A stretch of DNA of 64,000 bases from Defluviitaleaceae bacterium (GTDB lineage Bacteria > Bacillota > Clostridia > Lachnospirales > WQUN01), in contig WQVC01000001.1 in NCBI GenBank assembly GCA_009781765.1, positions 14,774 to 78,773 on the forward strand, in the 5' to 3' direction. Positions 5,029-51,056 of the stretch are shown here, in pieces. A model generated the notes under the pieces. It did not search any database, was not told the origin of the DNA, and was given only the letters and a program-made list of their open reading frames with translations. A program made the translations under genes and the position numbers. Each line of letters starts with the position of its first letter. Positions within the stretch are counted from its first letter, which is position 1.

Positions 5029-5073
5029 TTTATCATACCTCCGAAAAAATTTCATCAGATTTAAATGTTTATT

Positions 5074-5212
5074 CGGGGCTTCGCCCCAGACCCCACGAAC
5101 TTTTTGAAAAAAGTTCGACAAAAACTTCATTAAAATCGCGCGACGCGCGATTTTTGATTAAGTTTTGATGAAACTTTTTCAAAAGTTTCCGGGGTGCGGG
5201 GCAGAGCCCCGC
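5074..5212. repeat. family A palindromic element, copy A2 (intergenic)
   Basis: CGGGGCTTCGCCCC, then CGAACTTTTTGAAAAAAGTTCG, AATCGCGCGACGCGCGATT, GAAACTTTTTCAAAAGTTTC and GCGGGGCAGAGCCCCGC. Confidence 0.9.
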
Positions 5213-5229
5213 AGTTTCAATCGAATATT

Positions 5230-7104: not shown

Positions 7105-7212
7105 GGCGAAATTATACAGGATATCGGACAAAAAGCCAACATGCCGACAGGCGTGCGGAACCCTTCCGTGTTTCTTATCTTGAAAAGATTCCGAACGATT
7201 TCTGAAGTCCGC

Positions 7213-13783: not shown

Positions 13784-13792
13784 TTTTGCAAT

Positions 13793-14263
13793 GTGAGGGA
13801 CGTGTTAAAAGTGTCTGAAATAATTTTTGTATGCACGGGAAATACCTGTCGTTCGCCTATGGCGGCCGCGCTTGCTGCTGCCATTTTCGAGCGCGAGGGC
13901 ATAGAAATTGCGGTATCGTCGGCGGGAGTTTTCGCCTCATCCGGTGCCGGCGCAAGCAAAAATGCCGTTCTTGCGATGGAGCATGAAAATCTCAATTTGC
14001 GCGAGCATAAATCCCGCGTGACGGCGACTGAAATTCTCGAAAACGCCGTACTTGTTCTCACAATGACGCGCTCGCATCTTTCGCATGTTAAAGCCGCCGG
14101 CCCCGCCGCAAACGCATTCACATTGGGCGAATATGCCGGCGACTGCGCCGACGTTGCCGACCCTTTCGGCGGCGATTTGGAAGAATACAAAGCCTGCGCC
14201 GCTCAAATAAAAAAACTTCTCGAAGCGTGCGTCGAGAAGTTTCGCGCAGAGCAACACCGATAA
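13793..14263 (+). CDS. low-molecular-weight protein phosphatase (YwlE-like arginine/tyrosine phosphatase)
   Basis: CTGNTCRSPMA P-loop and a DP motif (VADPFGG). It follows tsaC, as ywlE follows ywlC in B. subtilis. The true start may be the GTG at 13811. Confidence 0.8.
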   Translation: MRDVLKVSEIIFVCTGNTCRSPMAAALAAAIFEREGIEIAVSSAGVFASSGAGASKNAVLAMEHENLNLREHKSRVTATEILENAVLVLTMTRSHLSHVKAAGPAANAFTLGEYAGDCADVADPFGGDLEEYKACAAQIKKLLEACVEKFRAEQHR

Positions 14264-15111: not shown

Positions 15112-15219
15112 CAGAGAGTGTCGAAAAATTACGCTTTCGCATATGCCGCATCTCGGCAACCGGTCTGAATCCGCCGGTTTCCTGCGATGCCGACACAGCT
15201 TATTTTTCAACACTCTCTG
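15112..15219. repeat. family C TIR element, copy C1 (overlaps the histidine kinase stop)
   Basis: Terminal inverted repeats CAGAGAGTGTCGAAAAATT / TATTTTTCAACACTCTCTG. The core TTTCGCATATGCCGCATCTCGG..CCGCCGGTTTCCTGCGATGC is shared with the other copies. Confidence 0.85.
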
Positions 15220-20295: not shown

Positions 20296-20377
20296 AAAAA
20301 TTCACCTCGGACAATATTTTGCATTTCCGAGTGATTTTTTATTACGGCAAAATTTGCAAATATGATGAATAAAATTT

Positions 20378-20630
20378 GGGGGGCGTCGCCCCCTCTCACG
20401 CGCTGCGCGCGTTGGCCGGGCGGCCTCGCTGACGCGACCCGACTTCGCCGGGGGACAGCCCAAGCCCCCACCCGCTTTTTAAAGGGTGGCGCGGGAAACG
20501 TTCGCTTCGCTCACTGCGCCCTCTAAAAGCGGGGCAAAAATTATTAAAAAATCGCGCAAAGCGCGATTTTAATAAAGTTTTTGTCGAACTTTTTTCAAAA
20601 AGTTCGTGGGGTGCGGGGCGAAGCCCTGCG
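20378..20630. repeat. composite palindromic element A3 (family A modules plus family B core)
   Basis: GGGGGGCGTCGCCCCC, ACGCGCTGCGCGCGT, GGGAAACGTTCGCTTCGCTCACTG (B core), AATCGCGCAAAGCGCGATT, CGAACTTTTTTCAAAAAGTTCG. Confidence 0.85.
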
Positions 20631-20696
20631 GTTTTGATGTTCATTCGCGATATGATATACTTAGGGAGTGTGGATTATTTTTATGAGGTGGGGCTT

Positions 20697-23885: not shown

Positions 23886-23903
23886 TCAATACGTGTACTC
23901 CTT

Positions 23904-24039
23904 GAGGGCTCCGCCCTCAAACTCCCGCAAGGGGACTATGTCCCCTTGACCCCGTCAAAGAATCGCGCGAATGCGCGATTCTTGTTAAATTTTACTTTTT
24001 TTAAAAAGTTCGCCGGGTACGGGGCTGAGTCCCGCGAAC
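23904..24039. repeat. family A variant element, copy A4 (intergenic)
   Basis: GAGGGCTCCGCCCTC, GGGGACTATGTCCCC, AATCGCGCGAATGCGCGATT, ACTTTTTTTTAAAAAGT. Confidence 0.8.
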
Positions 24040-24058: not shown

Positions 24059-27000
24059 GTGCAAATTCAATTTATTCTCGGCGGTCCCGGAACGGGAAAA
24101 TCTACATATGTTTTGCAGGAAATGTGTCGCGCGGTGCAATCGGATTTCGCCGCGCCGTTGTATTATCTTGTTCCCGAGCAGTTTTCGTTGCAGTCGGAAC
24201 GGCTTTTGCTCGAAGCGGAAAACGGTCGTGCGGCAACAACTCGCGTGCAGGTGCTGAGCTTTAATCGGCTCGCGCATCGGCTTTTTTCCGTACTCGGCGG
24301 TTTGCCGGGAAAACACGCCGACGATTTGGGCAAACAAATGCTTCTTCGCAAAGTTATTTTCGAGGTGGCGGGCGAAACGGAATTTTACAAAAGCGCGACG
24401 GACAAGCAGGGTTTTGTTTCGGAACTCGGCAGAACAATCACGGAGCTGAACCATTATCGCGTGAGCGCGGCGGATTTGCGCGACCGCGCGGCGGACTCGA
24501 CTCCGGCGTTTGCGGCAAAATTACGCGATATTGCCACGATTTTACAAAAATATCGCGAGGCCGTTACCGGGCGGCACATTCTCACCGACGACATGCCGGA
24601 AATCCTTTGCAACAGGCTTGCCGAGCTGCCCCCCGGCGAAAGTTTTCCGCTTTTGGACGGCGCGATGTTTTGGATTGACGGATTTTCCGGCTTCACCCCG
24701 CAAGAGCGACACGTTTTGCAACACATTTTAAAACGCGCCGAAAAAATCACTCTGACGCTCACCCTCAAAGATGAAATCTCCCGCGCACCGCGCGACACAA
24801 TCGAAAAAATCGAGACATTCGCACATTCCCTCCGCGCGCAAATTCTCCCGCACATACACATGAAGGAAAATTTTCGCCACGTAAACGCGCCGGGGCTTCG
24901 ATATTTTGTTAATAATTTTGGGCTTCGCCCCCCGCACCCCAATATCCCCTTGACCCCTACAGAGAAACCGCGCGAAGCGCGGTTTCTCAATAAAAGTTTT
25001 TTTGAAGGGGGCTTGGGGGAAACTTTTTTTTCAAAAAAAGTTTCCCCCAAAGAAAACATAGAAATCATATCATCAGCGGATAAATACGGCGGAGTTTATG
25101 CGGCCGCGCACAGTGTTTTGCGGCTGCGGGAGAAAGGTTATCGTTTCAGAGACATTGCGATTTTGTGCGGCGACCGCGAGCAATATGAAAAAATTTTGCA
25201 AACTGTTTTCGACCGCGAAAAAATTCCCGTTTTCGTTGATACGGAAATTGATATTTTGTCGCATCCGCTTACCGAATTGATTCGTGCCGCGCTGGATATT
25301 TTTGTGAAAAATTGGAGCATCGAAAGCGTGTTTCGCTTTTTAAAAACGGGGCTTGCCGGCGCAGACAGGGATACCATTGATATTTTAGAAAATTACGCGC
25401 TTGCAAACGGCATAAACTCGTATCGGTGGCGATACGAATTCCACGACGAAATTGCCGAAGCCGGGCGCGAAATACTGCTTCGCGGGCTTGCGCCGCTTAC
25501 ATCGAAAAAACCAAATCAATCGGTAGAGCAGTTACCAATTGAAAGCGATTCCCGCAGCGCGATTGGTTTTTGCAAATCTTCCGACACGGTTAAAAATTAC
25601 TCGAAACGTGTTTTTGATATGCTGTTCGGGCTGAATGTTCCCGAAACTTTGCAAAGTTGGTTCGACACGCACATGCTTTCCGGCGACCCGCAAACAGCGC
25701 GTATTCACGGGCAAATTTGGCCGAAAATTTGCGAGGTCTTTGATAAATTGGTCGAAATTTTGGGCGACGAAAAAGTCGAGCTGAAAACTTTTGCGGCAAC
25801 CCTCGACGCAGGATTTGTACAAGTCGGGTTGGGGCGTATTCCGCCGACCCTTGACCAAGTTGTTTTAGGCGATATTGCGCGTTCGCGTTATCCGCAAATC
25901 AAGGCGATGATTGTGCTTGGCGCGAACGACGGCGTTTTGCTGCCCACGCCGACACAATCCGGATTGTTCACCGACCACGAACGCAAATTGCTGAACAATT
26001 CCGGGATAAATGCTAAACCCGGTCGATTTGAAGTCGCGCCGGAAAACGCCGTTCGAATCAGCGAGCAAACATATAATTTGTTCTGCGCGCTTTCGCAACC
26101 GAGCGAAAAACTCATCTTGATTTACTCGGCGGGCGAAGCCGGAAAACCGTTGCGCCCGTCGCCGATTGTAAAGAAAATTCAAGCGTTGTTCCCGGGGCTT
26201 GAAACAACGCCCGCTCCCCTCCCCTCCGAGGACGCGGCCGATATGAGCGTGTTTTTCGCGCCGGTGAGGCTGTCGTCGCCTAACACCGCCGGAAGCACAA
26301 TTTTCACCGCCGCAACGCGCCTCGAAGCCTTTGCGCGTTGTCCGTTTGCGTACTATATGGATTATCTTTTGCGCGTTCGTCCGCGAAAATATTTTGAAGT
26401 TTTGCCGGCCGACCTCGGCAAACTCTTTCACGAGGTCATTGCAGATTTCACGAAACGTGGAAATTTCGACGCAACGCGGGACGAAATTAACGCCGAAGTT
26501 AATGCTCTTGTTGACGCGCTCGACCTCGAAAATTCGATTTTTTACAGCTCGGCGCGAAACAAATATGTATTGGATAAAGTGCGGCGCGTTGCGGCAGCGT
26601 CGTGTCACGCGCTTTGTCGCCAAATAAAAAACGGGCAGTATCGCCCGGGAATGACAGAACAGGAAATTTTGCACAACATCGCCCTCAACGACGGACGAAT
26701 GCTGTCGCTTTCCGGCCGCGTTGACCGCGTGGATTTTTCCGACACAAATCAAATTCGCATAGTGGATTACAAATCCGGCGCGACGAAATTTTCCCCCGAC
26801 GAAGCGTTAAAAGGCGTACAATTGCAGCTCGTTTTGTACATGAACGCGCTTTTAAAATCGCGCCCGAACAGCACGCCCGGCGGAATTTTTTATTTCCCGG
26901 TCGGCGACCCGATTATCGACACGAACGAAATTCTGCCCGACGTAATGCGCGAGGATGCCATTTTCAAAGCGTTTAAAATGTCCGGCATGGAAGCCGACGA

Positions 27001-27163
27001 CCCCGTCGCGTTCACAAATTTCGGCGCAGAGGTTGAAAACAGCGTGAAAGAACTCGGCATACGCATGTTCGACGGCGACATTTCCGCCCGTCCGTGGAGT
27101 ACAAAAAAAAGCCCCTGCGACTATTGCAATTTCGACGGGGTTTGCGGCGGATGCACCGGCTGA
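24059..27163 (+). CDS. addB: helicase-exonuclease AddAB, subunit AddB
   Basis: GTG start after an AAAGGAAG RBS. GGPGTGKST Walker A. C-terminal nuclease/Fe-S region (RLEAFARCPFAYY, DYKSG, CDYCNFDGVCG). Confidence 0.88.
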   Translation: MQIQFILGGPGTGKSTYVLQEMCRAVQSDFAAPLYYLVPEQFSLQSERLLLEAENGRAATTRVQVLSFNRLAHRLFSVLGGLPGKHADDLGKQMLLRKVIFEVAGETEFYKSATDKQGFVSELGRTITELNHYRVSAADLRDRAADSTPAFAAKLRDIATILQKYREAVTGRHILTDDMPEILCNRLAELPPGESFPLLDGAMFWIDGFSGFTPQERHVLQHILKRAEKITLTLTLKDEISRAPRDTIEKIETFAHSLRAQILPHIHMKENFRHVNAPGLRYFVNNFGLRPPHPNIPLTPTEKPREARFLNKSFFEGGLGETFFSKKVSPKENIEIISSADKYGGVYAAAHSVLRLREKGYRFRDIAILCGDREQYEKILQTVFDREKIPVFVDTEIDILSHPLTELIRAALDIFVKNWSIESVFRFLKTGLAGADRDTIDILENYALANGINSYRWRYEFHDEIAEAGREILLRGLAPLTSKKPNQSVEQLPIESDSRSAIGFCKSSDTVKNYSKRVFDMLFGLNVPETLQSWFDTHMLSGDPQTARIHGQIWPKICEVFDKLVEILGDEKVELKTFAATLDAGFVQVGLGRIPPTLDQVVLGDIARSRYPQIKAMIVLGANDGVLLPTPTQSGLFTDHERKLLNNSGINAKPGRFEVAPENAVRISEQTYNLFCALSQPSEKLILIYSAGEAGKPLRPSPIVKKIQALFPGLETTPAPLPSEDAADMSVFFAPVRLSSPNTAGSTIFTAATRLEAFARCPFAYYMDYLLRVRPRKYFEVLPADLGKLFHEVIADFTKRGNFDATRDEINAEVNALVDALDLENSIFYSSARNKYVLDKVRRVAAASCHALCRQIKNGQYRPGMTEQEILHNIALNDGRMLSLSGRVDRVDFSDTNQIRIVDYKSGATKFSPDEALKGVQLQLVLYMNALLKSRPNSTPGGIFYFPVGDPIIDTNEILPDVMREDAIFKAFKMSGMEADDPVAFTNFGAEVENSVKELGIRMFDGDISARPWSTKKSPCDYCNFDGVCGGCTG
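24920..25048. repeat. family A element, copy A5, in frame inside addB
   Basis: GGGCTTCGCCCC, AAACCGCGCGAAGCGCGGTTT, GGGGGAAACTTTTTTTTCAAAAAAAGTTTCCCCC. Translated as GLRPPHPNIPLTPTEKPREARFLNKSFFEGGLGETFFSKKVSP. Confidence 0.85.
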
Positions 27164-27184: not shown

Positions 27185-28432
27185 CTACAAAGCCGACGCA
27201 TTAACGTTTCGACGTGCGCGTTCGATGATTTCGTTAAGAACAAACGCCGCGATAACAAGCGCGATAATTGCCGGGAAAAATGCGTCGAGCGAGATATTTT
27301 CTAAAATTTGACCGATTGCAAGCGAGCCGAGTGCCGCACCTGCGCCGGCAGCCGCGACCTGCATTCCGACTAACTTTGACAGCATGGCGGGGTCGAAGCG
27401 ACGCTTTGTTTCGTTCATAAGGCAGGGAAAAATCGGCGCGAATCCGAATCCCACAAGCGCGATGCCGATAATATTGCTTGTAAAAATCAGCGCGACCAAA
27501 CCGACGCCGGCAATAAAAAATCCCGTGCGAATCACGGTTATGCCCGAAAATTTCTCAGTTATGTATCCGAAAATAAATCGCCCCGCCATTAACGCGCCGA
27601 GATACACCGCAGGAAAAAGCCCCGCCGTTTCAAACACAACGTCGCGTCGTGCGCTGTTTAACAAAACGTCAACCGTCCAAATTGTCACGGACGATTCAAA
27701 CGCTACATAGACAAAAAAGACCAAAAATTGCAAATACTGAAACCGACGCGCGGTAATAAACGAGACTTCGCCGCCGGCCGAATTTTGTTCGGCTTCCGGG
27801 GGATGCGCTTCCGAATTTTGTTCGGCTTCGAGGGAATGTGCCGCTTTCGACTCTTGCCCCCGGCTATCACCGCGCGCTTGGCGCGCATCCCAGAGTCCGC
27901 GCAAAATACTTATCAAGAGGATGAGCAAAATCAAAAACTGCACCGCGAAAATCGCTGCGTAGCCCGTTCGCCAGTCATAGTAAATTATCATTTGACGCAT
28001 AATGAGCGGGCTTATTGCGCCGCCCATTGCCCAAAAACAATGCAGATGATTCATGTGTCGTGCGGAAAATCGGCTCACAACAAGAGCGTTCGCGCCCGCG
28101 TCAACAAGGCTTGCGCCCGCGCCGAGCAGCGAGGTGGATACAAGCATTCCCGCCAAATTCGGCGAAATTATATAGCCCGCAATGCCCGCCATCAGCATGA
28201 AAAAACCGCCGCCGGTAACCCATTTCAGCCGCAAAAACTTTTCAAGCCGCCCCGCTTGCGACGCCGCAAGCGCGTAACTCAAAGAGTTTACAATCATTAT
28301 CGCCGACGCTTGTCCGCGCGAAAGTCCCATATCAAAACGAATGCCGGGTAACGCAACGCCAAACGCCTCGGGCATACCGATTGCGAAAAACGCCGCGTAC
28401 GCGGCAAGCAGCAAAAACCAAGATTTTTTCAT
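27185..28432 (-). CDS. MFS transporter
   Basis: 415 aa, 12 predicted hydrophobic segments in two halves separated by a charged central loop. Confidence 0.8.
   Translation of the reverse strand: MKKSWFLLLAAYAAFFAIGMPEAFGVALPGIRFDMGLSRGQASAIMIVNSLSYALAASQAGRLEKFLRLKWVTGGGFFMLMAGIAGYIISPNLAGMLVSTSLLGAGASLVDAGANALVVSRFSARHMNHLHCFWAMGGAISPLIMRQMIIYYDWRTGYAAIFAVQFLILLILLISILRGLWDARQARGDSRGQESKAAHSLEAEQNSEAHPPEAEQNSAGGEVSFITARRFQYLQFLVFFVYVAFESSVTIWTVDVLLNSARRDVVFETAGLFPAVYLGALMAGRFIFGYITEKFSGITVIRTGFFIAGVGLVALIFTSNIIGIALVGFGFAPIFPCLMNETKRRFDPAMLSKLVGMQVAAAGAGAALGSLAIGQILENISLDAFFPAIIALVIAAFVLNEIIERARRNVNASAL
27778..27840. repeat. 33-nt tandem duplication plus family E motif in the MFS central loop
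   Basis: CCGAATTTTGTTCGGCTTC occurs twice, and the second copy runs into CGGCTTCGAGGGAATGTG. The peptide is HSLEAEQNSEAHPPEAEQNS. Confidence 0.8.
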
Positions 28433-28511: not shown

Positions 28512-28622
28512 GGCGACCTCTGAAAACCCATCTTTTCGCATATTTCGCTTCTCGGAAAATGGCTTGAAGCCGCCGGTTTTCTGCGATGCGACACAGCTCA
28601 AAGTGGGTTTTCGGAGGTCGCC
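28512..28622. repeat. family C TIR element, copy C2 (abuts the divIVA-like stop)
   Basis: TIRs GGCGACCTCTGAAAACCCA / TGGGTTTTCGGAGGTCGCC. The core matches C1 (TTTTCGCATAT..CTCGGAAAA..CCGCCGGTTTTCTGCGATGCGACACAGCT). Confidence 0.85.
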
Positions 28623-29489: not shown

Positions 29490-29559
29490 TTGCGTTACAT
29501 AACGGGAAGCGTTCGCTTCGCTCACTGTTTCTGTTGGCAGCCGGTTGGTTACCGATAGG
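29490..29559. repeat. family B element, copy B3 (intergenic)
   Basis: AACGGGAAGCGTTCGCTTCGCTCACTGTTTCTGTTGGCAGCCGGTTGGTTACCGATAGG. Confidence 0.85.
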
Positions 29560-32066: not shown

Positions 32067-32074
32067 TTGACCTT

Positions 32075-32155
32075 GGGGGAGAAACTTTTTTGTAAAAAAA
32101 GTTTCTCCCTCTCTTTTTCAAAAAATTTTAAAAAGCCGCGCTTTGCGCGGTTTTT
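32075..32155. repeat. family A element, short copy A6 (intergenic)
   Basis: GGGGGAGAAACTTTTTTGTAAAAAAAGTTTCTCCC and AAAAGCCGCGCTTTGCGCGGTTTTT. Confidence 0.8.
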
Positions 32156-32171
32156 CTGTAGGGATGGAAAC

Positions 32172-33005
32172 ATGGCGATTGATGCGAAATATTCGGGTGA
32201 CGTTGATATAATCATGTCGCATCGGTATGATTTGGGCGCGGATTATTGGACGACGCCGGATAAACGGTTAGCCAAGGGTTCGCCGTTTTCGTGCATGTGC
32301 AGTGCGTATATGTTATCGGAATTGGGCATGGAGTCGTCCGACCCTGTTTTGTCGGCGGTTGCGGAATTGTTTTTCACCACGTGGCAGAATGACGGTCGCT
32401 TCAAGTTGTATCCGAGCGGCGGAATTTTGCCGTGTCACACGGCGTATGCCGCCGATTTAATGTGTCGCATGGGTTACGTTGACGACGAACGCATTCAAAC
32501 AACTTTGCGACATTTTCTCGACACGCCCTATGCGGACGGCGGATGGCGGTGCAATAAATTTTCGTTCGGCAGAGGTCCGGAAACAGATTACTCAAACCCA
32601 CTCCCTACGCTGAACGCGCTTGACGCTTTTCGGCACAGCCGGTACTTGAACAACGAGCCTAAATTGGACAAAGCCGTTGAATTTTTGCTTGCTCATTGGA
32701 CGATTCGGACGCCGATAGGCCCGTGTCAATACGGCATGGGAACGCGATTTATGCAGGTGGAATATCCGTTGTGGAGTTATAATTTGTTTCAATATGTCTA
32801 TGTTCTGTCGTTTTACAATCGCGCCAAACGCGACGAACGATTTTTGGAGGCTCTTAGTGCGTTGCAATCCAAACTCATCGACGGGATGATTGTCGTTGAG
32901 CGAATTGTGCCGAAACTTTCGAAATTGAGCTTTTGCAAAAAAGGTCGGCCGAGCGAGCTTGCGACCGAGCGATACCGTGAAATTTCGGAGAATATAAAGC
33001 ATTGA
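32172..33005 (+). CDS. hypothetical protein, possibly prenyltransferase/terpene-cyclase-like alpha-alpha toroid repeat
   Basis: I moved the start to the ATG at 32172 because the upstream part of the ORF is repeat A6. The DGGWRC and WQNDGRF motifs give only weak family evidence. Confidence 0.4.
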   Translation: MAIDAKYSGDVDIIMSHRYDLGADYWTTPDKRLAKGSPFSCMCSAYMLSELGMESSDPVLSAVAELFFTTWQNDGRFKLYPSGGILPCHTAYAADLMCRMGYVDDERIQTTLRHFLDTPYADGGWRCNKFSFGRGPETDYSNPLPTLNALDAFRHSRYLNNEPKLDKAVEFLLAHWTIRTPIGPCQYGMGTRFMQVEYPLWSYNLFQYVYVLSFYNRAKRDERFLEALSALQSKLIDGMIVVERIVPKLSKLSFCKKGRPSELATERYREISENIKH

Positions 33006-34396
33006 GTGCGGTAAACATCCCCGACTATGCGGCAAAAATTATCGCTGCCCTGACCGCCGCCGGACACGAGGCGTTTATCGTAGGCGGGTGTGTGCGCGAT
33101 ATGATTCGCGGCGCAACCCCCGGCGACTGGGACATTGCAACATCAGCCCGACCCGACGAGGTTAAGGGCTTGTTTTCGCGTACATTTGACACCGGAATCA
33201 AGCACGGCACAGTATCGGTGTTGTGCGGCTCGAACGTTTGCGAAGTTACAACGTATCGCATTGACGGCGAATATTCCGACAATCGGCGTCCGGCAACGGT
33301 GACTTTCGCCGGAAAAATCGAGGAAGATTTAAGCCGCCGCGACTTTACAATTAACGCAATCGCGTACAATCCGACGCGCGGATTTGTTGACCCCTTCGAC
33401 GGACGCGGCGATATTTCGCGGAAAATTATAAAATGCGTCGGCGACGCGGAAACACGCTTCGGTGAAGACGCGCTGCGAATGCTTCGGGCGATTCGATTCG
33501 CGGCGGTACTGGGGTTTTGCGTGAATTCCGACGCCGTGCGGGCAATTACGAAACTGCGCGACAATCTCGCCGATATAAGCGGGGAGCGTATTCGCGAGGA
33601 ACTGTGCAAGCTCCTTTGCGGCGCACACCCCGATGCGGCGAAATTATTGCGCGAAACCGGTATTATGCGCCAAGTTTTGCGCGGGCGCGATTTCGGCGGA
33701 AATTTGGATGAGGTAGTTTCGCGATTGCAGGTGCTTTCCGGGGGACTCTGTCCCCCGAACCCCCTGCAAGGGGGGATAACACCCCCCCTTGACCCCCGAA
33801 ATGAAAAACCGCGCGAAGCGCGGTTTTTCGAAGGGGCGCGAGAGGCTTTTCCGCAGCCCGGGAAGCGGTATACGGCTTCGAGAGAATGTGTCGCAAGCTG
33901 TACGTGCAGCCGTGCAGCGGGAAGCGTTCGCTTCGCTCACTGCTGCTATCGGTGTTCAGTCTCCCCCAAAGGGACGTTGTCAAAAGCACTTGCGTTATTT
34001 TTTGCGTGGGCGGACGATGAGTGCGAGTATGTTTTGCGCGACTTGCGGTTCGACAATAAAACGATTCGGACAGTTTCACGATTCGTGCAAAATCGCGCGC
34101 TTCCCGGGTCGCGATATGAAATAAAGAAGTTAATGCGAATTTTTCCCCCGGACGAATTTGAGGATTGGTTGCATTTGCAGGAAATTTCTCAAAAGCGTTG
34201 TTTTGAAAAAATTCGCGCGGAAGCGGCGGATATTTTGACGCGGGGCGAGTGTTTTACTTTGCGCGGGCTTGCCGTAAACGGCAACGACCTCGCCGAAGTC
34301 GGCATAACCGGCAAAGCGGCGGGCGAGGCATTGGAGAAATTTTTGGACGCGGTTATGCGCGACCCGCAAATGAACGTGAAGGAGCGGCTGTTATGA
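33002..34396 (+). CDS. cca: CCA-adding tRNA nucleotidyltransferase with ~80 aa repeat-derived insert
   Basis: GGCVRDMIRG, DWDIAT, RRDFTINAIAY, and EDALRMLRAIRF motifs. Confidence 0.88.
   Translation: MSAVNIPDYAAKIIAALTAAGHEAFIVGGCVRDMIRGATPGDWDIATSARPDEVKGLFSRTFDTGIKHGTVSVLCGSNVCEVTTYRIDGEYSDNRRPATVTFAGKIEEDLSRRDFTINAIAYNPTRGFVDPFDGRGDISRKIIKCVGDAETRFGEDALRMLRAIRFAAVLGFCVNSDAVRAITKLRDNLADISGERIREELCKLLCGAHPDAAKLLRETGIMRQVLRGRDFGGNLDEVVSRLQVLSGGLCPPNPLQGGITPPLDPRNEKPREARFFEGAREAFPQPGKRYTASRECVASCTCSRAAGSVRFAHCCYRCSVSPKGTLSKALALFFAWADDECEYVLRDLRFDNKTIRTVSRFVQNRALPGSRYEIKKLMRIFPPDEFEDWLHLQEISQKRCFEKIRAEAADILTRGECFTLRGLAVNGNDLAEVGITGKAAGEALEKFLDAVMRDPQMNVKERLL
33740..33976. repeat. composite element A7 (family A hairpins plus E motif plus B core) in frame inside cca
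   Basis: GGGGGACTCTGTCCCCC, GGGGGGATAACACCCCCC, AAAACCGCGCGAAGCGCGGTTTTT, CGGCTTCGAGAGAATGTG, GGGAAGCGTTCGCTTCGCTCACTG. Confidence 0.85.
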
Positions 34397-36118: not shown

Positions 36119-37159
36119 TTACGACGGCGTTGTTCCGGTGTATGCTTTGTCGAGAATCATTTTTACATTTTTTGCTATCGCCTTAATTACAGGCACGGAA
36201 ACCGAATTTCCGAATTGCTTGTATAAGTGAACATCGGCAACGGTAAACGCAAAATTATCGGGGTAGCCTTGCAATCTTGCCCATTCGCGCGGGGTCATTT
36301 TTCGTATGCCCTCTGTGTTCACTTTACCTTTTATTTTTGTGACAGGGGTTAAATCGGTTTGGCGTTTGTCAATCAGCAAATTACGCTCCCGGCCCATGCC
36401 GCCGCATACAATTGCACCGGCGATGTCTTCCCAATCACGAATTTCAAAACCAAAGCCGTTGCCTTTTGATTCGTGCCTCGCACGATGACGGCGGAGCGTT
36501 TCTACATACACATCACTCAAATAATACTTTGCCGAAACGGGTTGAGCCTCAATTATGTCTTTGATTCGCTTGCTTGAATCTGTGGGGAGCGGGAACTCAA
36601 AGTCTGAACTGTCAATATCATTTCGGAACGCAACTATGTAAATACGCTCCCGATTTTGCGGTACGCCGTAATCCTTGCTGTTAAGTACGCTTTCGTGAAC
36701 CGTATATCCGATTTCTGTCAAAGTGCCTTTAATTATGTCAAAAGTACGCCCTTTGTCGTGTATGGTCAGCCCTTTTACGTTTTCGCAAAAAATTACTTTA
36801 GGCTTATGATGAGCGCAAATACGAGCAACATCAAAAAATAATGTTCCTCGTGACAATCCTTTGTAGTCGTCCGAAAAGCCTTTTTTTGCTCCGGCAAGAC
36901 TAAACGCTTGACACGGAAAACCTGCCAAACAAATATCAAACGGAGGAATATCAATCTCGTCAATTTGAGTTATATCACCCGAAATTTCAACCGAATCGGG
37001 ATAATTAGCACGATAGGTCTGCTGCGCTTTTTCGTCCGATTCACTGATAAAAACTGTTTCAATATTTCCATAAAACGCTTGGTCGAAGCCACGACGAATA
37101 CCGCCAATGCCGGCGAACAAATCTATTGATTTCAGTTTACCCACTTTGTTCACCGCCAA
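36119..37159 (-). CDS. dcm: DNA (cytosine-5)-methyltransferase
   Basis: Motifs DLFAGIGG (I), GFPCQAFS (IV), ENVKGL (VI), QNRERIYIV (VIII), GNSVSVPV (X). The start is uncertain (TTG at 37159, or GTG 15 nt downstream). Confidence 0.9.
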   Translation of the reverse strand: MAVNKVGKLKSIDLFAGIGGIRRGFDQAFYGNIETVFISESDEKAQQTYRANYPDSVEISGDITQIDEIDIPPFDICLAGFPCQAFSLAGAKKGFSDDYKGLSRGTLFFDVARICAHHKPKVIFCENVKGLTIHDKGRTFDIIKGTLTEIGYTVHESVLNSKDYGVPQNRERIYIVAFRNDIDSSDFEFPLPTDSSKRIKDIIEAQPVSAKYYLSDVYVETLRRHRARHESKGNGFGFEIRDWEDIAGAIVCGGMGRERNLLIDKRQTDLTPVTKIKGKVNTEGIRKMTPREWARLQGYPDNFAFTVADVHLYKQFGNSVSVPVIKAIAKNVKMILDKAYTGTTPS

Positions 37160-37444: not shown

Positions 37445-37473
37445 AATATAGACGAACAATACTCTTCTGTCAA
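37445..37473 (-). promoter_or_regulatory. sigma-70-type promoter (minus strand)
   Basis: TTGACA (37473-37468), 17 nt spacer, TATATT (37450-37445). Confidence 0.55.
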
Positions 37474-37540: not shown

Positions 37541-39952
37541 TCACGCTCTCACAAGCCGCGCTAAACCCGACATAAACTTTTTTTGCCCCGCGCCCGGAAA
37601 CTGCACGGTTACTTCATAATCCGCGCCGGCCGGCGTGATTTCAAGAACTTTGCCCACGCCGTATTTAATATGCTTCACATTGTCGCCGGCGGAAAAATCG
37701 GGCGGCGCGACTTTTGTTGAAAATGTTTTTTTTGCCGGGGGAACTTTTGAAAAAGTTCCCCCGGCGCCCCCCTCAAAACTTTTCTTGAAAGACCGCGCTT
37801 CGCGCGGTTTTTCTGCCGAAGCCGACCCGGCCGCTCCGCGATGCCCGGATTCACGGGGGGCAATGCTCCAACTTTTACCGGAAACCTCGCGAAGCGAGGT
37901 TTCCCTGAAGGGGTCAAGGGGACGAGTCCCCTTGTGGGGGTTCGGGGGCTGGTCGTCCGCCTGTCGGCGGACTGCTCGCCCATGCATCCCGGGCGAAGCC
38001 CCTGAGGCCTTAACGTTGCGAGCCTCGCCGTACATATTAACGGAAGTGATGCAAGTCGCCGGTACGTCGTCGAGAAAGCGGCTTGTTTTGTTGCGGGCGA
38101 TGTGGTCGAAGCGGCGACGCGAAATCGCGTGGGTGAGATAGAGGATTCGGCGGGCGCGAGTGAAGCCGACGTAGCATAATCGGCGTTCTTCCTCCATTTC
38201 CGAGGGAGTTTGGGCGTCGATTGAACGGGATGTGGGGAAAATATATTCCTCAAAGCCCACCATGAACACCACGTTAAATTCAAGCCCCTTCGCGCTGTGA
38301 AGGGTCATTAACGCTGCGGCGTCGGCGTTTTCGTCATAATTGTCCACGTCGGCAACGAGGGCAACATCTTCGAGAAATTTGCCCAAAGATGTGTCGTCGG
38401 ATTCGTTTTCGAAGGCGCGAGCTTTGGCGAGAAGCTCCTTGAGATTCTGCTCGCGCTCCGCGCCCTCGGGCGTACCGTCCTGAATTGTGCGGATGTAGTC
38501 GGTGTCGTGCAGAATTTTTTCGATAAGCGCGAGAACGCTGTTTTCGGCGGAAAATGCGGCGCATTCGTCCAGATATTCGGCGAATTGTTTGGCGGGCGCG
38601 GCTTTTTTGCCCAAATCGTGTATTTCGGAGGCGCGGGCAAGCGCCTGCGAGAAGGTGAGTTCGTTTTCTGCCGCGAACGCCTGAATTTTTGCGATTGACG
38701 CGCTGCCGATTCCGCGCTTCGGTACGTTTATTACGCGAAGGTGGGAAATATCGTCGGCGGGATTGTTGATTGCCTTGAGATACGCCAGCATGTCCTTGAT
38801 TTCCATGTGTTCATAGAAGCGTACACCGCTGAAAATGCGGTACGGAATGCCGCCGGTTACGAATTGGTCTTCGACGGCGCGCGACTGTGCGTTTGTTCGA
38901 TAAAGCACGGCGAAATCGCTGTAACGCGCCCCTTCGCGAATGCCGCGCGCAATCATTTGCGCAACAAAGTAGCCCTCGTCGCGCTCGTCGCGGGCGGTGT
39001 AAATGCGAATCGGGCCGCCGCGAGCATTTTCCGTCCACAAACGCTTTGCGGTTCGTTCTTCGTTATGAATAATTACGGCGTTCGCCGCGTCGAGAATTGT
39101 TGAGGTTGAACGATAATTTTGCTCCAATTTGATTACTTTCGCGCCGGGATAATCCTTTTCGAATCGCAAAATATTTTTTATATCCGCGCCGCGCCAACCG
39201 TAAATACTTTGGTCGTCGTCGCCCACAACGCACAAATTTTGCGCGTAACCCGAAAGATGCCGCACAAGTTCGTATTGCGCGTGGTTTGTGTCCTGATATT
39301 CGTCAACCATTACGTAACGAAAGCGATTTTGATATTTTTCGCGTATGTGTTCGTGTTGGGCGAAGAGTTCGGCAGTTTTGAAAATAATGTCGTCGAAGTC
39401 GAGGGCATTGCTGTTTTTCAGGCGTTTTTGATAAAGCGCGTAAACGTCGGCGATATTGCTTTCGCGAAAACTTCCCGCGACCATGCGTTCGTATTCCGCC
39501 GGCGAAATCAGCTCGTTTTTCTGCGCCGAAATTACTTGCGCAACATATCGCGGCGGATAATTTGTATCGCTCAAATTTTGCTCTTTGATGCATTCTTTTA
39601 TGAGACGCAGAGTGTCGGCTGTGTCATAAATCGAAAAGCCCGTTTTGTAGCCCAAATATTCAATTTCGCGCCGCAAAATTCGCGTACACGCCGCGTGAAA
39701 CGTGCTTACCCACACCTGCTCGCCGAGCGACGTTTTCGCGCTGATTCGCTCGCGCATTTCCCGCGCCGCCTTGTTCGTAAAGGTAATCGCAATAATATGA
39801 TACGGGTCAACCCCCGTTTCAATCAGCCGCGCAACACGATATGTAAGCACGCGCGTTTTTCCGCTGCCCGCCCCCGCGAAAATTAACAGCGGCCCTTCAA
39901 GATGCATTGCCGCCTCACGTTGGGCGGGATTAAGCTCGTCCAAATAATTCAT
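37541..39952 (-). CDS. pcrA: ATP-dependent DNA helicase PcrA with ~80-95 aa repeat-derived insert before the C-terminal domain
   Basis: LNPAQREAA, AGAGSGKT, DEYQDTN, VGDDDQSIYGWRGA, TLHSAKGLEF, and YVGFTRAR. I moved the start to the ATG at 39952. Confidence 0.92.
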   Translation of the reverse strand: MNYLDELNPAQREAAMHLEGPLLIFAGAGSGKTRVLTYRVARLIETGVDPYHIIAITFTNKAAREMRERISAKTSLGEQVWVSTFHAACTRILRREIEYLGYKTGFSIYDTADTLRLIKECIKEQNLSDTNYPPRYVAQVISAQKNELISPAEYERMVAGSFRESNIADVYALYQKRLKNSNALDFDDIIFKTAELFAQHEHIREKYQNRFRYVMVDEYQDTNHAQYELVRHLSGYAQNLCVVGDDDQSIYGWRGADIKNILRFEKDYPGAKVIKLEQNYRSTSTILDAANAVIIHNEERTAKRLWTENARGGPIRIYTARDERDEGYFVAQMIARGIREGARYSDFAVLYRTNAQSRAVEDQFVTGGIPYRIFSGVRFYEHMEIKDMLAYLKAINNPADDISHLRVINVPKRGIGSASIAKIQAFAAENELTFSQALARASEIHDLGKKAAPAKQFAEYLDECAAFSAENSVLALIEKILHDTDYIRTIQDGTPEGAEREQNLKELLAKARAFENESDDTSLGKFLEDVALVADVDNYDENADAAALMTLHSAKGLEFNVVFMVGFEEYIFPTSRSIDAQTPSEMEEERRLCYVGFTRARRILYLTHAISRRRFDHIARNKTSRFLDDVPATCITSVNMYGEARNVKASGASPGMHGRAVRRQADDQPPNPHKGTRPLDPFRETSLREVSGKSWSIAPRESGHRGAAGSASAEKPREARSFKKSFEGGAGGTFSKVPPAKKTFSTKVAPPDFSAGDNVKHIKYGVGKVLEITPAGADYEVTVQFPGAGQKKFMSGLARLVRA
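37733..37971. repeat. family A composite element A8, in frame inside pcrA
   Basis: GGGGGAACTTTTGAAAAAGTTCCCCC, GACCGCGCTTCGCGCGGTT, GGAAACCTCGCGAAGCGAGGTTTCC, GGGGACGAGTCCCC, GTCCGCCTGTCGGCGGAC. Confidence 0.85.
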
Positions 39953-40153
39953 AAGGGTCAACTCCTTTGCGCAGAATATTATACCGGGTTTCGCGAAAAA
40001 TTTGCGGCGAAAAATTTTTTCAAAAGTTTCCAAGGGTTCGAGGTAACGCCCCCGAGAACTTAAAAAATTAACTCCCACAAATCTGCACTTGCTAAATCGC
40101 GCATAATATGTTGTAATTCTTTCCGGTACGTTATAAAAGAAGGTGCGGATTTC

Positions 40154-42445: not shown

Positions 42446-42549
42446 CAGAGAGTGTTGAAAAATAGCTTGACCGGCATCTCGGAAGATGGCGGTTTCAGGT
42501 CATTTTCCGAGATGCGGCATATGCGAAAGCGTAATTTTTCAACACTCTC
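42446..42549. repeat. family C TIR element, copy C3
   Basis: CAGAGAGTGTTGAAAAAT..AATTTTTCAACACTCTC. The core is the reverse complement of the C1 core. It abuts the lipoprotein stop. Confidence 0.9.
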
Positions 42550-42561
42550 CGGTAATATTCC

Positions 42562-42733
42562 GAGACCTCGGACTCCGCCCAAACCCTCTCGCGTACTGCG
42601 TACGCCGGGCGGACGGGAAGTTGGGTTGGGTCGGAAACTTTTGAAAGAGTTTCATCAAAAAAACCGCGCGAATGCGCGGTTTTTTTGTGCTTCGGGGCTG
42701 CACGATTCCGGGAAAAATCCCCGTCACGGGGGC
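42562..42733. repeat. family A variant element, copy A9
   Basis: GAGACCTCGGACTCCGCCC (as in A1), GAAACTTTTGAAAGAGTTTC, AAACCGCGCGAATGCGCGGTTT. Confidence 0.75.
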
Positions 42734-42863
42734 AAGAACAAAGGGCTAAAACCTTCGACGGTGCGACAAAGGGAGACATTTTATTTAGACGCGCTTGTAC
42801 ATATGTTCCAAGGTATATTTCTGTTTTTTTCCTGTTTCGCATACTATCCGTTTTTGCGCGACA

Positions 42864-43165
42864 CTAGCAATCTACCGCAAATACGAATTGTGAACAAGCA
42901 ACGCTCGGTGGTCTGATACTATGCACGTATTGCCCCGGAGATTGAACTCCGAATCCTTTGCATATATCATAAGTTCCGCTGTCGAATATTGGAGCAATGC
43001 CGAGCCATTCAAGAGTAATGGCGTTGCGAATTGCTCCAATATTACAAAAATGCCTGTCTTCGTTAAGTATCAGATAGTCGAAGACAATCATTTTGTCAAT
43101 GCCCTCTTTTGCGCTTGGTATGCCGTAAGTTTTGCAACAATCTGAAAAATGTTGATGGAAACTCT
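42864..43165 (-). pseudogene. hipA-like kinase fragment (C-terminal part only)
   Basis: ..IDKMIVFDYLILNEDRHFCNIGAIRNAITLEWLGIAPIFDSGT aligns by eye to residues of the full copy at 44980-46245. There is a stop upstream and the sequence diverges after FDSGT. Confidence 0.75.
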
Positions 43166-43206
43166 ATTTCGTCTGCTTTGTATAGTTCCTATACTTAAAG
43201 CATTAG

Positions 43207-43482
43207 GGCGTCGTTTTCATCAACGACAACGAAAGCGGCTTGCACAGCAACTTCGAAAAGTGGTTGGAAAAACTCGCGCCCGAAAAGCCTCACAGTCAAT
43301 ACGCCCACAACGGCTACGAGGATAACGCGGATGCCCATTTGAAGCGCACCGTCATGGGACGTGAGGTGGTTGTCGCTGTCACCGAAAGCAAGTTGGACTT
43401 CGGAACATTGGAGCAAATCTTTTACGGAGAATTTGACGGCATGAGGGACAAGTGTGTTCTGATAAAAATAATCGGCGAATGA
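43207..43482 (+). pseudogene. YjbQ/UPF0047 family gene, 5'-truncated
   Basis: [52 protein letters not shown] matches the C-terminal two-thirds of YjbQ. It is preceded by an in-frame TAG. Confidence 0.65.
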
Positions 43483-43635
43483 CAAGTTTTCATAGATGCC
43501 GGCGGTTGCCCCGTGGTGGATATAACCGTGAAATTATGCACAAAAGCAGGCGCAGAGTGCGTAATTATTTGCGACACCGCCCACCGGTTTGCAAGGCTCG
43601 CCGAAGCGCACAGCGGAACAAAATATAGCGTTTGA
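43483..43635 (+). pseudogene. YaiI/YqxD (UPF0178) fragment
   Basis: QVFIDAGGCPVVDITVKLC.. resembles the N-terminal IxxDADACPV motif. There is no start codon and only ~50 codons. Confidence 0.5.
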
Positions 43636-43677
43636 AAATTCACTGCGAAAACTTTTGCATGAAGGGATTTGATTCTG

Positions 43678-44026
43678 ATGAACACACTGATAGCAGTATC
43701 AATCGCGCCATTTGGCGTGGGCGATGAACTTTCACAGTATGTAGCGGAAGTTGTGAAAGTTATCGAAGCGTCCGGAGTCATGCCGCACGACCTCCATGTT
43801 TACGGAAATCGAAGGCGATTGGGACGAAGTTACGCAGGTTGTGAAAGACGCAACATTCGTGCTTGCAAGCAAGGGCATCCGCACAAATGTCGTGACGAAA
43901 GCAGATATTCGCCCCGGTCGCACAAATCGTCTGACCGGCAAAGTCGAAAAACTCGACAGTATTTTGGGCGAGAAAAGAGGGCGGATTCAGGCTGGTTTCC
44001 GAGATGCGGCATATGCGAAAGCGTAA
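43678..44026 (+). pseudogene. MTH1187/YkoF-type thiamine-binding protein gene, frameshifted
   Basis: Frame 1 reads MNTLIAVSIAPFGVGDELSQYVAEVVKVIEASGV. Frame 2 reads MFTEIEGDWDEVTQVVKDATFVLASKGIRTNVVTKADIRPGR. The 3' end runs into repeat C4. Confidence 0.65.
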
Positions 44027-44043
44027 TTTTTCAACACTCTCTC
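43978..44043. repeat. family C element, 5'-truncated copy C4
   Basis: GGCGGATTCAGGCTGGTTTCCGAGATGCGGCATATGCGAAAGCGTAATTTTTCAACACTCTC. The left TIR is missing. Confidence 0.8.
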
Positions 44044-44201
44044 AGACGACTTTGGCAACCAATTAGATTGTATAAATGTGGGTTGCTTGCGTATTTTTCA
44101 TCTGCGATACATGTAGGAATACCGATTGATACATTTTTCACTCATTCTTGGGAATGCTACGGTAAGACAGCAAAAACTTTAGAAAAATCGGAGTGAACAA
44201 T

Positions 44202-44495
44202 ATGGAAAATCAAAATTCATCCGCATTGCCGATGATGTCTGTGAAAGAAATTCCCCAAGCAAGCAACACCGCCGCACAAATTACCGCACTCGTAAAAGAA
44301 AGCGGAAAAGTGGTAGGTTATCAGCTTTCAACCGGTCAAACGTTGGGTAAAGATGAAGCCGTAGCGTTAGCGCGTCAAGGCGGAATCCAAGGCGTCGGCA
44401 TTTCCGAACGCGACGGAAATGAATACTTGAAATCCATTCCTGACGGCACGGAAAGCAATAATTTGAACAATTTGCCGGCTGTATCTTTTACGTAA
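44202..44495 (+). CDS. DUF3892-like small protein
   Basis: ITALVKESGKVVGYQLSTGQTLGKDEAVALARQGGIQGVGISERDGNEYLKSIPDGTESNNLNNLP fits my recollection of the DUF3892 pattern. Confidence 0.5.
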   Translation: MENQNSSALPMMSVKEIPQASNTAAQITALVKESGKVVGYQLSTGQTLGKDEAVALARQGGIQGVGISERDGNEYLKSIPDGTESNNLNNLPAVSFT

Positions 44496-44534
44496 ATTTT
44501 TGCTCGGGAACACACGCGCAAAGGAGAGATTGAC

Positions 44535-44657
44535 GTGGCGAAGAAAAAGAAAAACGTGTTTAACGATGGCGTTAAAAATGCCGAGGATAATGAAAATATC
44601 GGTGAACGGCTTAATATGCCGGTAGGCAGCAAACGCCCCCGAAAAACCGCAAAATGA
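44535..44657 (+). CDS. possible 40-aa basic protein
   Basis: AAGGAGAG RBS 6 nt before a GTG. Not in the ORF track (<60 aa). Confidence 0.25.
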   Translation: MAKKKKNVFNDGVKNAEDNENIGERLNMPVGSKRPRKTAK

Positions 44658-44848
44658 TTTTATGGTGAGTCAAAATAATTTTGCTCGCGCTTGCGCGATA
44701 GCGAAATTATTTTAGACGAACGCCCCTCACCGACGAAGCGAAGCGTAGGGGGTGGGGAAAATTTTTCGAAGCAAAATATAGTCGGTCAATATTAAATTGA
44801 CCGACTGTATACCGTTCCTCAAGCCCGATGTTTAACATACTGTATTTA

Positions 44849-44958
44849 GGCGACCTCTAAAAACCCTAATTTTCGCATACCTCGCTCCTCAGAAAATGGC
44901 TTGAAACCACCTTTTCTTGCGGAGCTTCGGAGCTCAAAAAGGGTTTTTGGAGGTCGCC
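44849..44958. repeat. family C TIR element, copy C5
   Basis: GGCGACCTCTAAAAACCC..GGGTTTTTGGAGGTCGCC. The core is related to C2. It lies 21 nt downstream of the hipA-like stop. Confidence 0.85.
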
Positions 44959-48113: not shown

Positions 48114-48258
48114 TGGGGGGGCTTCGCCCCCAAACCCCCACGAACTTTTTGAAAAAAGTTCGACAAAAACTTTATTAAAAAACGCGCTTTGCGCGTTTTT
48201 TATTTAAGTTTTGATGAAACTTTTTCAAAAGTTTCCGGGGTGCGGGGCGGAGCCCCGC
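48114..48258. repeat. family A palindromic element, copy A10 (intergenic)
   Basis: GGGGGGGCTTCGCCCCC, CGAACTTTTTGAAAAAAGTTCG, AACGCGCTTTGCGCGTT, GAAACTTTTTCAAAAGTTTC, GCGGGGCGGAGCCCCGC. Confidence 0.9.
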
Positions 48259-48279
48259 GATTTTTATTTTATCTGAACA

Positions 48280-50748: not shown

Positions 50749-50849
50749 TTTTTTCGCCCCTCTTTATATAAGTATGCATAGATTCTTACCGGATTTTATG
50801 TGATGTAAAACAGTTTATGAGTTTGATATGTTAATGTCAAACAACAGCA

Positions 50850-50986
50850 GGGCTTTGCCCCGCACCCCACGAACTTTTTTGGAAAAAAGTTCGACAAAAA
50901 ACTCAAAAATCGCGCATTGCGCGATTTTAATTAAAGTTTTTGCCCCGCTTTTTTCAAAAAGCGGGTGGGGTTTGGGGCGAAGCCCC
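50850..50986. repeat. family A palindromic element, copy A11 (intergenic)
   Basis: GGGCTTTGCCCC, CGAACTTTTTTGGAAAAAAGTTCG, AATCGCGCATTGCGCGATT, CCCGCTTTTTTCAAAAAGCGGG, GGGGCGAAGCCCC. Confidence 0.9.
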
Positions 50987-51056
50987 GAAAGTTGTAGTGT
51001 AATGAAATCGCCGGTCGTACGTATACCCTTATGAAAACCTTTGCAAGGGGAAGAAA

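Follow-up and report, generated by a model that had tools for sequence, protein, structure and literature searches.

The pcrA gene and its tether

The DNA analysed here is a 64-kb stretch of contig WQVC01000001.1 from an uncultured Defluviitaleaceae bacterium of the termite gut (the window, to whose numbering all positions refer unless another contig or locus is named), and our subject is a run of strong hairpins that lies in frame inside its pcrA gene and belongs to a family of nested palindromes dispersed through the same DNA. The pcrA coding sequence occupies 37541-39952 on the minus strand (803 residues and a stop codon) and its reading frame is intact. A longer open reading frame (ORF) of 845 residues that reaches up to 40078 is a 5' over-extension, the true start being the ATG at 39952, and the product is identical to P0001, an 803-residue protein already in the databases, as well as to what was called for this gene on the source contig. 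Matches to Pfam families PF00580 (UvrD-helicase), PF13361 (UvrD_C) and PF21196 (PcrA_UvrD_tudor), together with an alignment to the Geobacillus stearothermophilus PcrA structure 1pjr (E=1e-196), place the protein among PcrA/UvrD helicases, with a superfamily 1 UvrD-type core followed by a C-terminal Tudor domain. By the Pfam and 1pjr alignments the helicase core spans residues 4-639 and the Tudor domain about 750-798, and the gap between them is about 110 residues compared with about 20 in Geobacillus. The Tudor domain itself (37544-37702, minus strand, residues ~751-803, with PF21196 on 756-798), which binds RNA polymerase, is undamaged and follows the insert in frame. A near-consensus site resembling a sigma-70 promoter (TTGACA-17-TATATT, 37445-37473 on the minus strand) lies between pcrA and the gene downstream of it, which encodes a C5 DNA methyltransferase (36119-37159).

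Within the gap, the codons for residues 648-743 derive from repeat DNA. In an AlphaFold2 model built on 32 homologues, these residues are predicted to be disordered, with a predicted local distance difference test score (pLDDT) of 31-37 and no secondary structure, while the core and Tudor domain score above 90, the latter at 91-95 with its five strands in place. The low-scoring range coincides exactly with the repeat-derived codons, and nowhere else in the protein does the score fall under 50. A sequence-only reading that preceded this work had put an insert between the helicase core and the C-terminal Tudor domain and had proposed that such insertions are tolerated in flexible linkers; Pfam, the structural alignment and the AlphaFold2 scores bear out both its position and its predicted flexibility, and the copies found in addB and cca (see below) likewise lie between domains. 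The linker of G. stearothermophilus PcrA is natively disordered and poorly conserved (PMC5397179). An exhaustive phmmer search with the 94-residue insert peptide returned no match at E<=1e-3 among 1.84 billion cluster representatives, and the earlier supposition that PcrA of unrelated genera would lack a comparable linker is thus upheld; we used phmmer in place of a word-index search with a 91-residue insert peptide, which was discarded as it had missed the identical P0001.

Structure of the hairpin segment

The five consecutive hairpins that the sequence-only reading had described in pcrA are all present (plus-strand coordinates 37734-37765, 37787-37813, 37880-37904, 37915-37934 and 37955-37972), with perfect stems of 7-15 bp, and the in-frame translations it quoted, along with the upstream ..SRFLDDVP.. 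and the downstream ..GDNVKHIKYGVGKVLEI.., are correct. Its extent of 37733-37971 (about 240 nt) fits the hairpin stretch but falls short of the full repeat-derived segment, which runs from about 37724 to about 38011 on the minus strand. We set these boundaries by comparison with the pcrA genes of two related species (loci L082 and L088 below), with an uncertainty of about 10 nt at each edge; the segment is read through in frame and supplies about 94 low-complexity residues of the tether. Its local G+C content is 0.61-0.67 against 0.49 for the window. Folded as RNA, the 261 nt from 37720 to 37980 reach a minimum free energy of -138.2 kcal/mol, compared with -100.2 +/- 5.0 for shuffled sequences (z=-7.6; 0 of 200 shuffles fold as well), and folded as DNA they give z=-7.1, while a control stretch of pcrA of the same length gives z=-0.16.

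Alignment of its modules shows that the segment comprises some 1.5-2 units and belongs to a G+C-rich subfamily whose hallmark is the motif CCCCTTGACCCC. Read in the sense of the gene (all coordinates on the minus strand), it opens with the leader AAGGCCT (38005-38011), whose counterpart AAGACCT leads the copy at 1681 and both intragenic copies of L088, and with a remnant of a G-hairpin, GGGGCTTCGCCC (37991-38002), the same module that as GGGGCTTCGCCCC starts the canonical copies. A 45-nt module, GGATGCATGGGCGAGCAGTCCGCC..GGCGGACGACCAGCCCC, follows and contains the hairpin GTCCGCC-GACA-GGCGGAC (37955-37972), with the tetranucleotide CGTC abutting the stem. The next hairpin, CAAGGGG-ACTC-GTCCCCTTG (37915-37934), forms the motif CCCCTTGACCCC with the ACCCC spacer behind it, and has homologues with other inner stems and loops at 23928-23948, at 33767-33791, at positions 49-69 of locus L084 and in L088. 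Thereafter comes a variant CGCG hairpin, GGAAACCTCGC-TTC-GCGAGGTTTCC (37880-37904), which aligns with 11 other copies and shows compensatory changes relative to their consensus, and a 66-nt spacer of weaker pairing (37814-37879) that had no significant blastn match inside the window and whose CGGCCGGGTCGGC recurs in the cca insert of L088. The second CGCG hairpin, GAAAAACCGCGC-GAA-GCGCGGTCTTTC (37787-37813), is translated EKPREAR and is 96% identical over 27 nt to 33803-33829. After AAAAGTTTTGAGGGGGGC the segment ends in the GGGGGAACTTTTT hairpin, GCCGGGGGAACTTTT-..-AAAAGTTCCCCCGGC (37734-37765), which has a stem of 14-15 bp; its homologues are 25013-25050 in addB and, in the canonical copies, the AAACTTTTTCAAAAGTTT hairpins.

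The repeat family in the window

About 12 loci within the window carry members of this nested-palindrome family, which is built from a few kinds of module, namely a G-hairpin GGGGCnnnGCCCC, a CAAGGGG..CCCCTTG hairpin, an A-run/CGCGCG/T-run hairpin and a (G)AAACTTTTT..AAAAGTTT(C) hairpin, joined by conserved short spacers such as ACCCC and AAAGTTTT. The canonical copy is an A+T-rich, nested imperfect palindrome of about 145 nt with five hairpins: it consists, in this order, of a G-hairpin, an ACCCC spacer, a CGAACTTTTT..AAAAAGTTCG hairpin, the A-run/CGCGCG hairpin/T-run, an AAGTTTT spacer, a AAACTTTTT..AAAAGTTT hairpin, a GGGGT spacer and a second G-hairpin. Canonical copies lie between genes at 1679-1825, 5073-5219, 48117-48265 and 50848-50995; a profile hidden Markov model (HMM) of these four is called the canonical HMM below. 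A partial canonical copy occurs between genes at 20525-20635, with further G+C-rich hairpins upstream of it (20370-20525), a further intergenic copy at 32072-32163 downstream of the gene for a H+-pyrophosphatase, a partial copy at 39992-40053 just 5' of the pcrA start codon (canonical HMM, E=8e-4) and a short two-hairpin copy, matched by HMM, at 42632-42688. A gene for a second UvrD-like helicase (5230-7131, 633 residues), a paralogue without the Tudor domain, has a canonical copy directly after its stop codon.

The G+C-rich subfamily has modules in common with these A+T-rich copies. Its motif CCCCTTGACCCC occurs four times in the window where 0.1 would be expected by chance, and its members are an intergenic copy on the plus strand at 23899-24039 (between an MCP gene and addB), the pcrA segment and copies in two other ORFs. 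Within the window, blastn aligns the pcrA segment with 24960-25059 in addB (78% over 102 nt, E=1e-16), with 24945-24998 (81% over 54 nt, E=2e-8) and, between genes, with 23913-23957 (E=2e-7, 84% over 45 nt). Moreover, an HMM made from the four canonical intergenic copies alone matches pcrA at 37812-37739 (E=1.5e-7), and the reciprocal HMM of G+C-rich copies matches the canonical ones (E=1e-13 to 5e-10). Likeness to the intergenic copies, which the sequence-only reading had left to be settled by computational alignment, is thereby upheld. The same reading had called the segment a composite of its "Family A", and here the kinship stands, but the segment is not one canonical unit and belongs instead with the G+C-rich subfamily.

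Conservation within the family extends to base pairing. In the CGCG hairpin, aligned over 12 copies, 93.7% of cells pair, a level that none of 500 shuffles reached and that no slid register approached, and 6 of the 12 pairs have undergone two-sided compensatory change; in the variant hairpin of pcrA, for example, a C-G pair has become U-A and a G-C pair has become U-A. Sorted by flanking genes, the intergenic copies lie between divergent genes in 4/9 cases, between co-directional genes in another 4/9 and between convergent genes in none.

In-frame copies in addB and cca

The two other ORFs with G+C-rich copies are addB (24059-27163) and cca (33002-34396), and all three host ORFs are intact, as are the two hosts in L088, pcrA and cca. 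In addB the copy occupies 24916-25064 on the plus strand and is read in sense in the EKPREAR frame; it falls between ADDB_N (residues 5-281) and the next Pfam domain, in a region that aligns poorly with Bacillus subtilis AddB. In cca it occupies 33736-33850, also on the plus strand, within an insert of about 70 residues that runs on to about 33960 into a second, different repeat family, described below. Neither P0122, the closest orthologue, nor three others (P0124, P0126 and P0130) have this insert, and the orthologue alignment shows its position to be a variable loop; the CCA-adding enzyme of L088 (P0123) has its own shorter insert at the same loop, made of modules of the element. The copies in pcrA, addB and cca all lie between protein domains. 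All five intragenic copies (three in the window and two in L088) share one orientation, sense, and the three in the window share the ..EKPREAR.. frame through the CGCG hairpin. In these intragenic copies CCCCTTGACCCC is read as PLDP or PLTP and the frame that would give TGA is never used, a pattern expected from a survivorship filter against stop codons.

The same loci in related species

The PcrAs nearest to that of the window all come from termite-gut Defluviitaleaceae, known from metagenome-assembled genomes (MAGs; PMC7024585). Aligning these orthologues, as the sequence-only reading had proposed, we found that most of them have short, unrelated linkers in proteins of 724-754 residues, that the linkers of several close Defluviitaleaceae PcrAs (P0003, P0007, P0014 and P0017; loci L081, L083, L001 and L002) are unrelated to it, and that in L088 and L082 the site used in the window is occupied by the element or by what is left of it. 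The pcrA linker is clearly a hot spot for change in these relatives. The long linker of the 856-residue P0018 (L086, 3900-4320) was considered as a further hairpin insert and rejected; it is expanded by 42-nt tandem direct repeats, a different mechanism. An unrelated palindrome with 26-nt arms that are 96% complementary lies in frame in the pcrA linker of another relative (L001 3695-3764, MAG Co191P1bin81).

Locus L088 is a syntenic contig from another termite-gut sample (ERZ27257299, k141_767168) whose PcrA core is 89.2% identical to that of the window. It carries modules of the family at three places that correspond to sites in the window: after the end of the H+-pyrophosphatase gene (9194-9240), in the cca loop (10003-10100) and in the pcrA linker (13760-13870), where the element begins at the homologous junction and has a module set that differs from the window's. 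The 45-nt module is identical at 43 of 45 positions (96%) between the two species, with both differences in the loop, whereas the DNA of the pcrA core is 81.6% identical and its third codon positions, taken as synonymous sites, 59.4%. The frame of the module is not the same, being read as DAWASSPPKGGRPAP in L088 and as MHGRAVRRQADDQPP in the window. The linker of L082 (PcrA core 87.3% identical) holds only a weak remnant, with a Smith-Waterman score of 30 against 17.8 +/- 2.1 for shuffles (z=5.8), and four other relatives are at background. These alignments place the element or its remnant at one shared position of pcrA in both relatives, L088 and L082. In addition, a termite-gut contig (L084) has an intergenic copy at positions 1-77, downstream of cysS, that is about 85% identical to the left half of the insert, including the 45-nt module.

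Beyond this group, none of the 80 loci from a genome-collection scan with PcrA contains CCCCTTGACCCC, CGCGCGAAGCGCGG or AACTTTTTNAAAAGTT, and a single one (L043) has HMM matches. In L043, from a distant Bacillota MAG (OH_PDB_109) with a PcrA of 42% identity, two-hairpin units (AAAAGTTTTGG-CAAGCTTTTTTAAAAGCTTG-CAGGGTTT-GGGGCAGCGCCCC) flank pcrA at 3872-3928 and 6764-6818 and match the right arm of the canonical element (HMM, E=2e-9), so the modular architecture may be more widespread than this clade. A metagenome scan with the C-terminal 189 residues of PcrA gave four loci and no allele of the same species, and a viral-contig scan with a canonical 26-mer gave no match.

Other repeats and regions of the window

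The distal half of the cca insert (33873-33952) belongs to a second repeat family (CGGCTTCGAGAGAATGTGTCGC... / CGGGAAGCGTTCGCTTCGCTCACTG) that also occurs in other ORFs and in intergenic DNA, with copies at 2566-2629, 27823-27886, 20492-20526 and 29503-29537. Copies of a third family, about 65 nt long (..TTCCGAGATGCGGCATATGCGAAAGCGTAATTTTTCAACACTCTC), number five and occur in both orientations (15113-15175, 28512-28574, 42483-42549, 43975-44041 and 44849-44911), several of them in a gene-poor stretch at 42.4-44.9 kb beside a HipA-like gene and a HipA fragment. We considered 42450-44900 as a possible IS200-like source and rejected it, as it holds just HipA-like fragments and this other repeat family. 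Between 58100 and 62900 lies a cluster of phage-tail-like genes (YQBQ-like, DUF2577 and a cell-wall hydrolase/amidase), which suggests a prophage remnant or tailocin-like region, and toxin-antitoxin genes are found farther along the contig (L091).

Discussion

Our analysis makes it likely that a lineage-specific, modular palindromic repeat occupies, and by now largely makes up, the disordered tether of this PcrA, and that it is passively translated there. What has been conserved is, by the comparison with L088, the DNA or RNA palindrome and not the peptide, since the 45-nt module is kept at 96% identity against 59% at synonymous sites, its frames differ between the species, and the stems pair through compensatory changes. 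On the same comparative footing the insertion is neither private nor recent, being shared and remodelled among related species, and because an element or remnant lies at the same site in L088 and L082 we regard the segment as most of the linker and not as an interruption of an older one. In the mechanism we propose, the element would spread, or be homogenised, as DNA through a hairpin-recognising or a template-switch/gene-conversion process. Selection would then act as a filter, such that in essential genes just those copies survive that are free of stop codons, keep the frame and fall in flexible linkers or loops. As a peptide the insert is probably neutral, simply making the tether longer, and the segment would persist because this position tolerates nearly any stop-free, frame-preserving sequence.

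For the upkeep of the 45-nt module two explanations remain, either copying or homogenisation from other copies of the family or direct selection on the structure of the DNA or RNA. On a rival reading the hairpins are a selected cis-acting structure of pcrA itself, one that might pause ribosomes between core and Tudor domain, govern RNase processing or stability, or set the ratio of full-length to Tudor-less PcrA. The fold is indeed extremely stable (z=-7.6), the 45-nt module is 96% identical between species, against 59% for synonymous sites, despite a change of frame, stems show compensatory changes, and at least two species have kept the element in one and the same position. However, the same modules occur at about 12 places that have nothing to do with each other, among them two other genes and the promoter regions of divergent genes, so that their conservation is a property of the family and not of pcrA. 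Orthologous pcrA linkers vary in module content and most relatives are without any. Moreover, the hairpins are not followed by a U-tract when read in sense; a test for intrinsic terminators found no terminator-like site on the minus strand in 37724-38011, while several intergenic copies are terminator-like. Rfam 15 likewise recognises only two tRNAs in the window and no family for the element at the gathering threshold, with permissive scans adding merely generic long-hairpin matches far under threshold. We therefore consider a pcrA-specific cis-acting role unlikely.

Far less probable still is that the tether is an ordinary, natively evolved linker of low complexity whose likeness to the repeats is a coincidence, or that the intergenic copies are unrelated G+C-rich hairpins. 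Linkers in this clade do vary greatly in length and sequence, as the 42-nt tandem repeats of P0018/L086 and the 26-nt-arm palindrome of L001 illustrate, and a PcrA of 803 residues is long, yet not unique. Against this stand the strong nucleotide matches to genic and intergenic copies (E=1e-16, 2e-7 and 1.5e-7), the order of modules and the spacers that the copies have in common, and the reading of one DNA module in different frames in two species, for which descent at the protein level cannot account; on these alignments such an origin is effectively refuted already. We give equally little credence to a mis-join or collapse of repeat copies into pcrA by a short-read assembler (k=141), for although the source is a metagenome-assembled contig (k141_1726639) and the repeat unit is about as long as the largest k-mer, both flanks are pcrA in frame and the Tudor domain correctly follows, both JGI (a contig of 84,846 nt) and ENA/NCBI (84,860 nt, ERZ27257300) list the identical PcrA and CCA proteins, and the element occupies the same site in a relative that comes from another sample and was assembled independently.

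Several observations weigh against a passively translated, mobile repeat as we have proposed it. No transposase or other mobilising gene was called among 43 ORFs of the window scanned with Pfam, nor among the genes on the remainder of the 84.9-kb contig, and inspection showed no target-site duplications flanking the four canonical copies, so that mobility of the element is something we infer. No AddB orthologue spanning the addB insert was found by tblastn in any of the fetched loci, and no truly close relative offers an empty site, since even the nearest cores of PcrA are only 87-89% identical. That the 45-nt module is so highly conserved could reflect functional selection rather than a selfish or neutral existence. 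Finally, we examined one contig, and the copy number, the orientation bias and the apparent preference for DNA-repair and tRNA enzymes rest on very small numbers.

Beyond passive translation of a tolerated repeat, we can tentatively conceive of an active, nucleotide-constrained element, distinct from the GTAG/CGTC-tagged repetitive extragenic palindromic (REP) sequences, that keeps remodelling the flexible linkers of PcrA, AddB and the CCA-adding enzyme in termite-gut Defluviitaleaceae. Here linkers would be born de novo regardless of frame, by a hairpin-specific propagation or homogenisation not described before, and the bias towards repair and RNA genes would be real and not a product of chance. 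We hold this to be possible but would not expect it; if it were true, the recurrence of the host classes seen with proteobacterial intragenic REPs would reflect a real bias of targeting or selection.

Palindromic repeats that lie in frame in essential genes are known as textbook curiosities from Rickettsia and from certain Proteobacteria rich in REPs. The same module in orthologous linkers, in different frames, offers a natural experiment that separates constraint on DNA or RNA from constraint on protein, with synonymous sites near saturation between the window species and L088 while the 45-nt module has been kept. It also shows the birth and turnover of disordered linkers from repeat DNA, and since the host genes echo an unexplained bias of intragenic REPs, a preference for repair and RNA enzymes becomes testable across phyla. 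From a practical point of view, such inserts inflate protein lengths, confuse domain annotation and endanger the assembly of MAGs.

Comparison with known systems

Rickettsia palindromic elements (RPEs) are palindromic repeats of about 150 bp that lie in frame in many Rickettsia genes (PMC10969869), as reported by Ogata et al. (2000 Science, 2002 Genome Res; via PMC10969869 and PMC3733652). Similar to these, the element of the window is a dispersed palindromic repeat of about 100-150 bp, with in-frame, translated copies in several unrelated, intact housekeeping genes at positions compatible with the fold, and every element yields a stop-free peptide. It differs in being a mosaic of four or five short hairpin modules of variable number and order, in having a module read in more than one frame, and in a peptide that is predicted to be disordered instead of a conserved structural module. 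Considering that it occurs in Bacillota and RPEs in Alphaproteobacteria, we do not expect their sequences to be related, and we claim an analogy and not membership.

A second point of comparison is the intragenic REPs, stem-loops of 20-40 bp in high copy number, which according to Di Nocera et al. (2013) concentrate in genes for UvrD/Rep helicases, recBCD, uvrABC and tRNA-modifying enzymes (PMC3733652). Two Xanthomonas species have different REPs at one recB site, and linkers or loops have been proposed as neutral landing sites (PMC3733652). The family described here likewise consists of short, high-copy stem-loops (the family loci contain 46 hairpins whose stems pair perfectly over 6 bp or more), often clustered and in frame within genes. 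It is found in PcrA, which is of the UvrD family, in AddB, the analogue of RecBCD, and in the CCA-adding enzyme, and relatives have the same site occupied. The parallel in host genes is striking, as an analogy resting on three genes. However, the GTAG/CGTC tag of REPs accompanies just 2 of the 46 hairpins, the exception being the GTCCGCC..GGCGGAC module, which alone is consistently tagged with CGTC in the window, L084 and L088. The ORFs of the window scanned with Pfam and the remaining gene calls of its contig include no REP-associated tyrosine transposase (RAYT, of the IS200/IS605 type) and no other Y1 transposase. REPs also tend to follow genes, in spacers that are convergent or co-directional, whereas 4/9 of the intergenic copies here lie between divergent genes and none between convergent ones.

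In their modular build, with a few kinds of palindromic module and conserved linkers in variable number and order, the Escherichia coli bacterial interspersed mosaic elements (BIMEs) and the pneumococcal BOX elements resemble the element of the window. They differ in being essentially extragenic, and their module sequences are unrelated to those found here. BIMEs bind integration host factor (IHF) and gyrase, and we know of nothing comparable for the present element. Bacterial transposable elements of the miniature inverted-repeat type (MITEs), such as ERIC and those of cyanobacteria (PMC10969869), are also small and non-autonomous, form long hairpins and occasionally fuse in frame to host ORFs. 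In contrast to MITEs, the flanks of the four canonical copies show no target-site duplication, no cognate insertion sequence was seen, and the termini are themselves palindromic: canonical copies start and end with G-hairpins and are palindromic over their whole length (the HMM matches both strands), so that their ends are hairpins and not classical terminal inverted repeats. Taking these comparisons as a whole, the element belongs to neither the RPE nor the REP families, since it is found in another phylum, lacks the tags, is a mosaic of hairpin types and has 4/9 of its intergenic copies between divergent genes. It is nonetheless a functional match, within Bacillota and from an unrelated family of modular hairpins, to the phenomenon known from RPEs and intragenic REPs.

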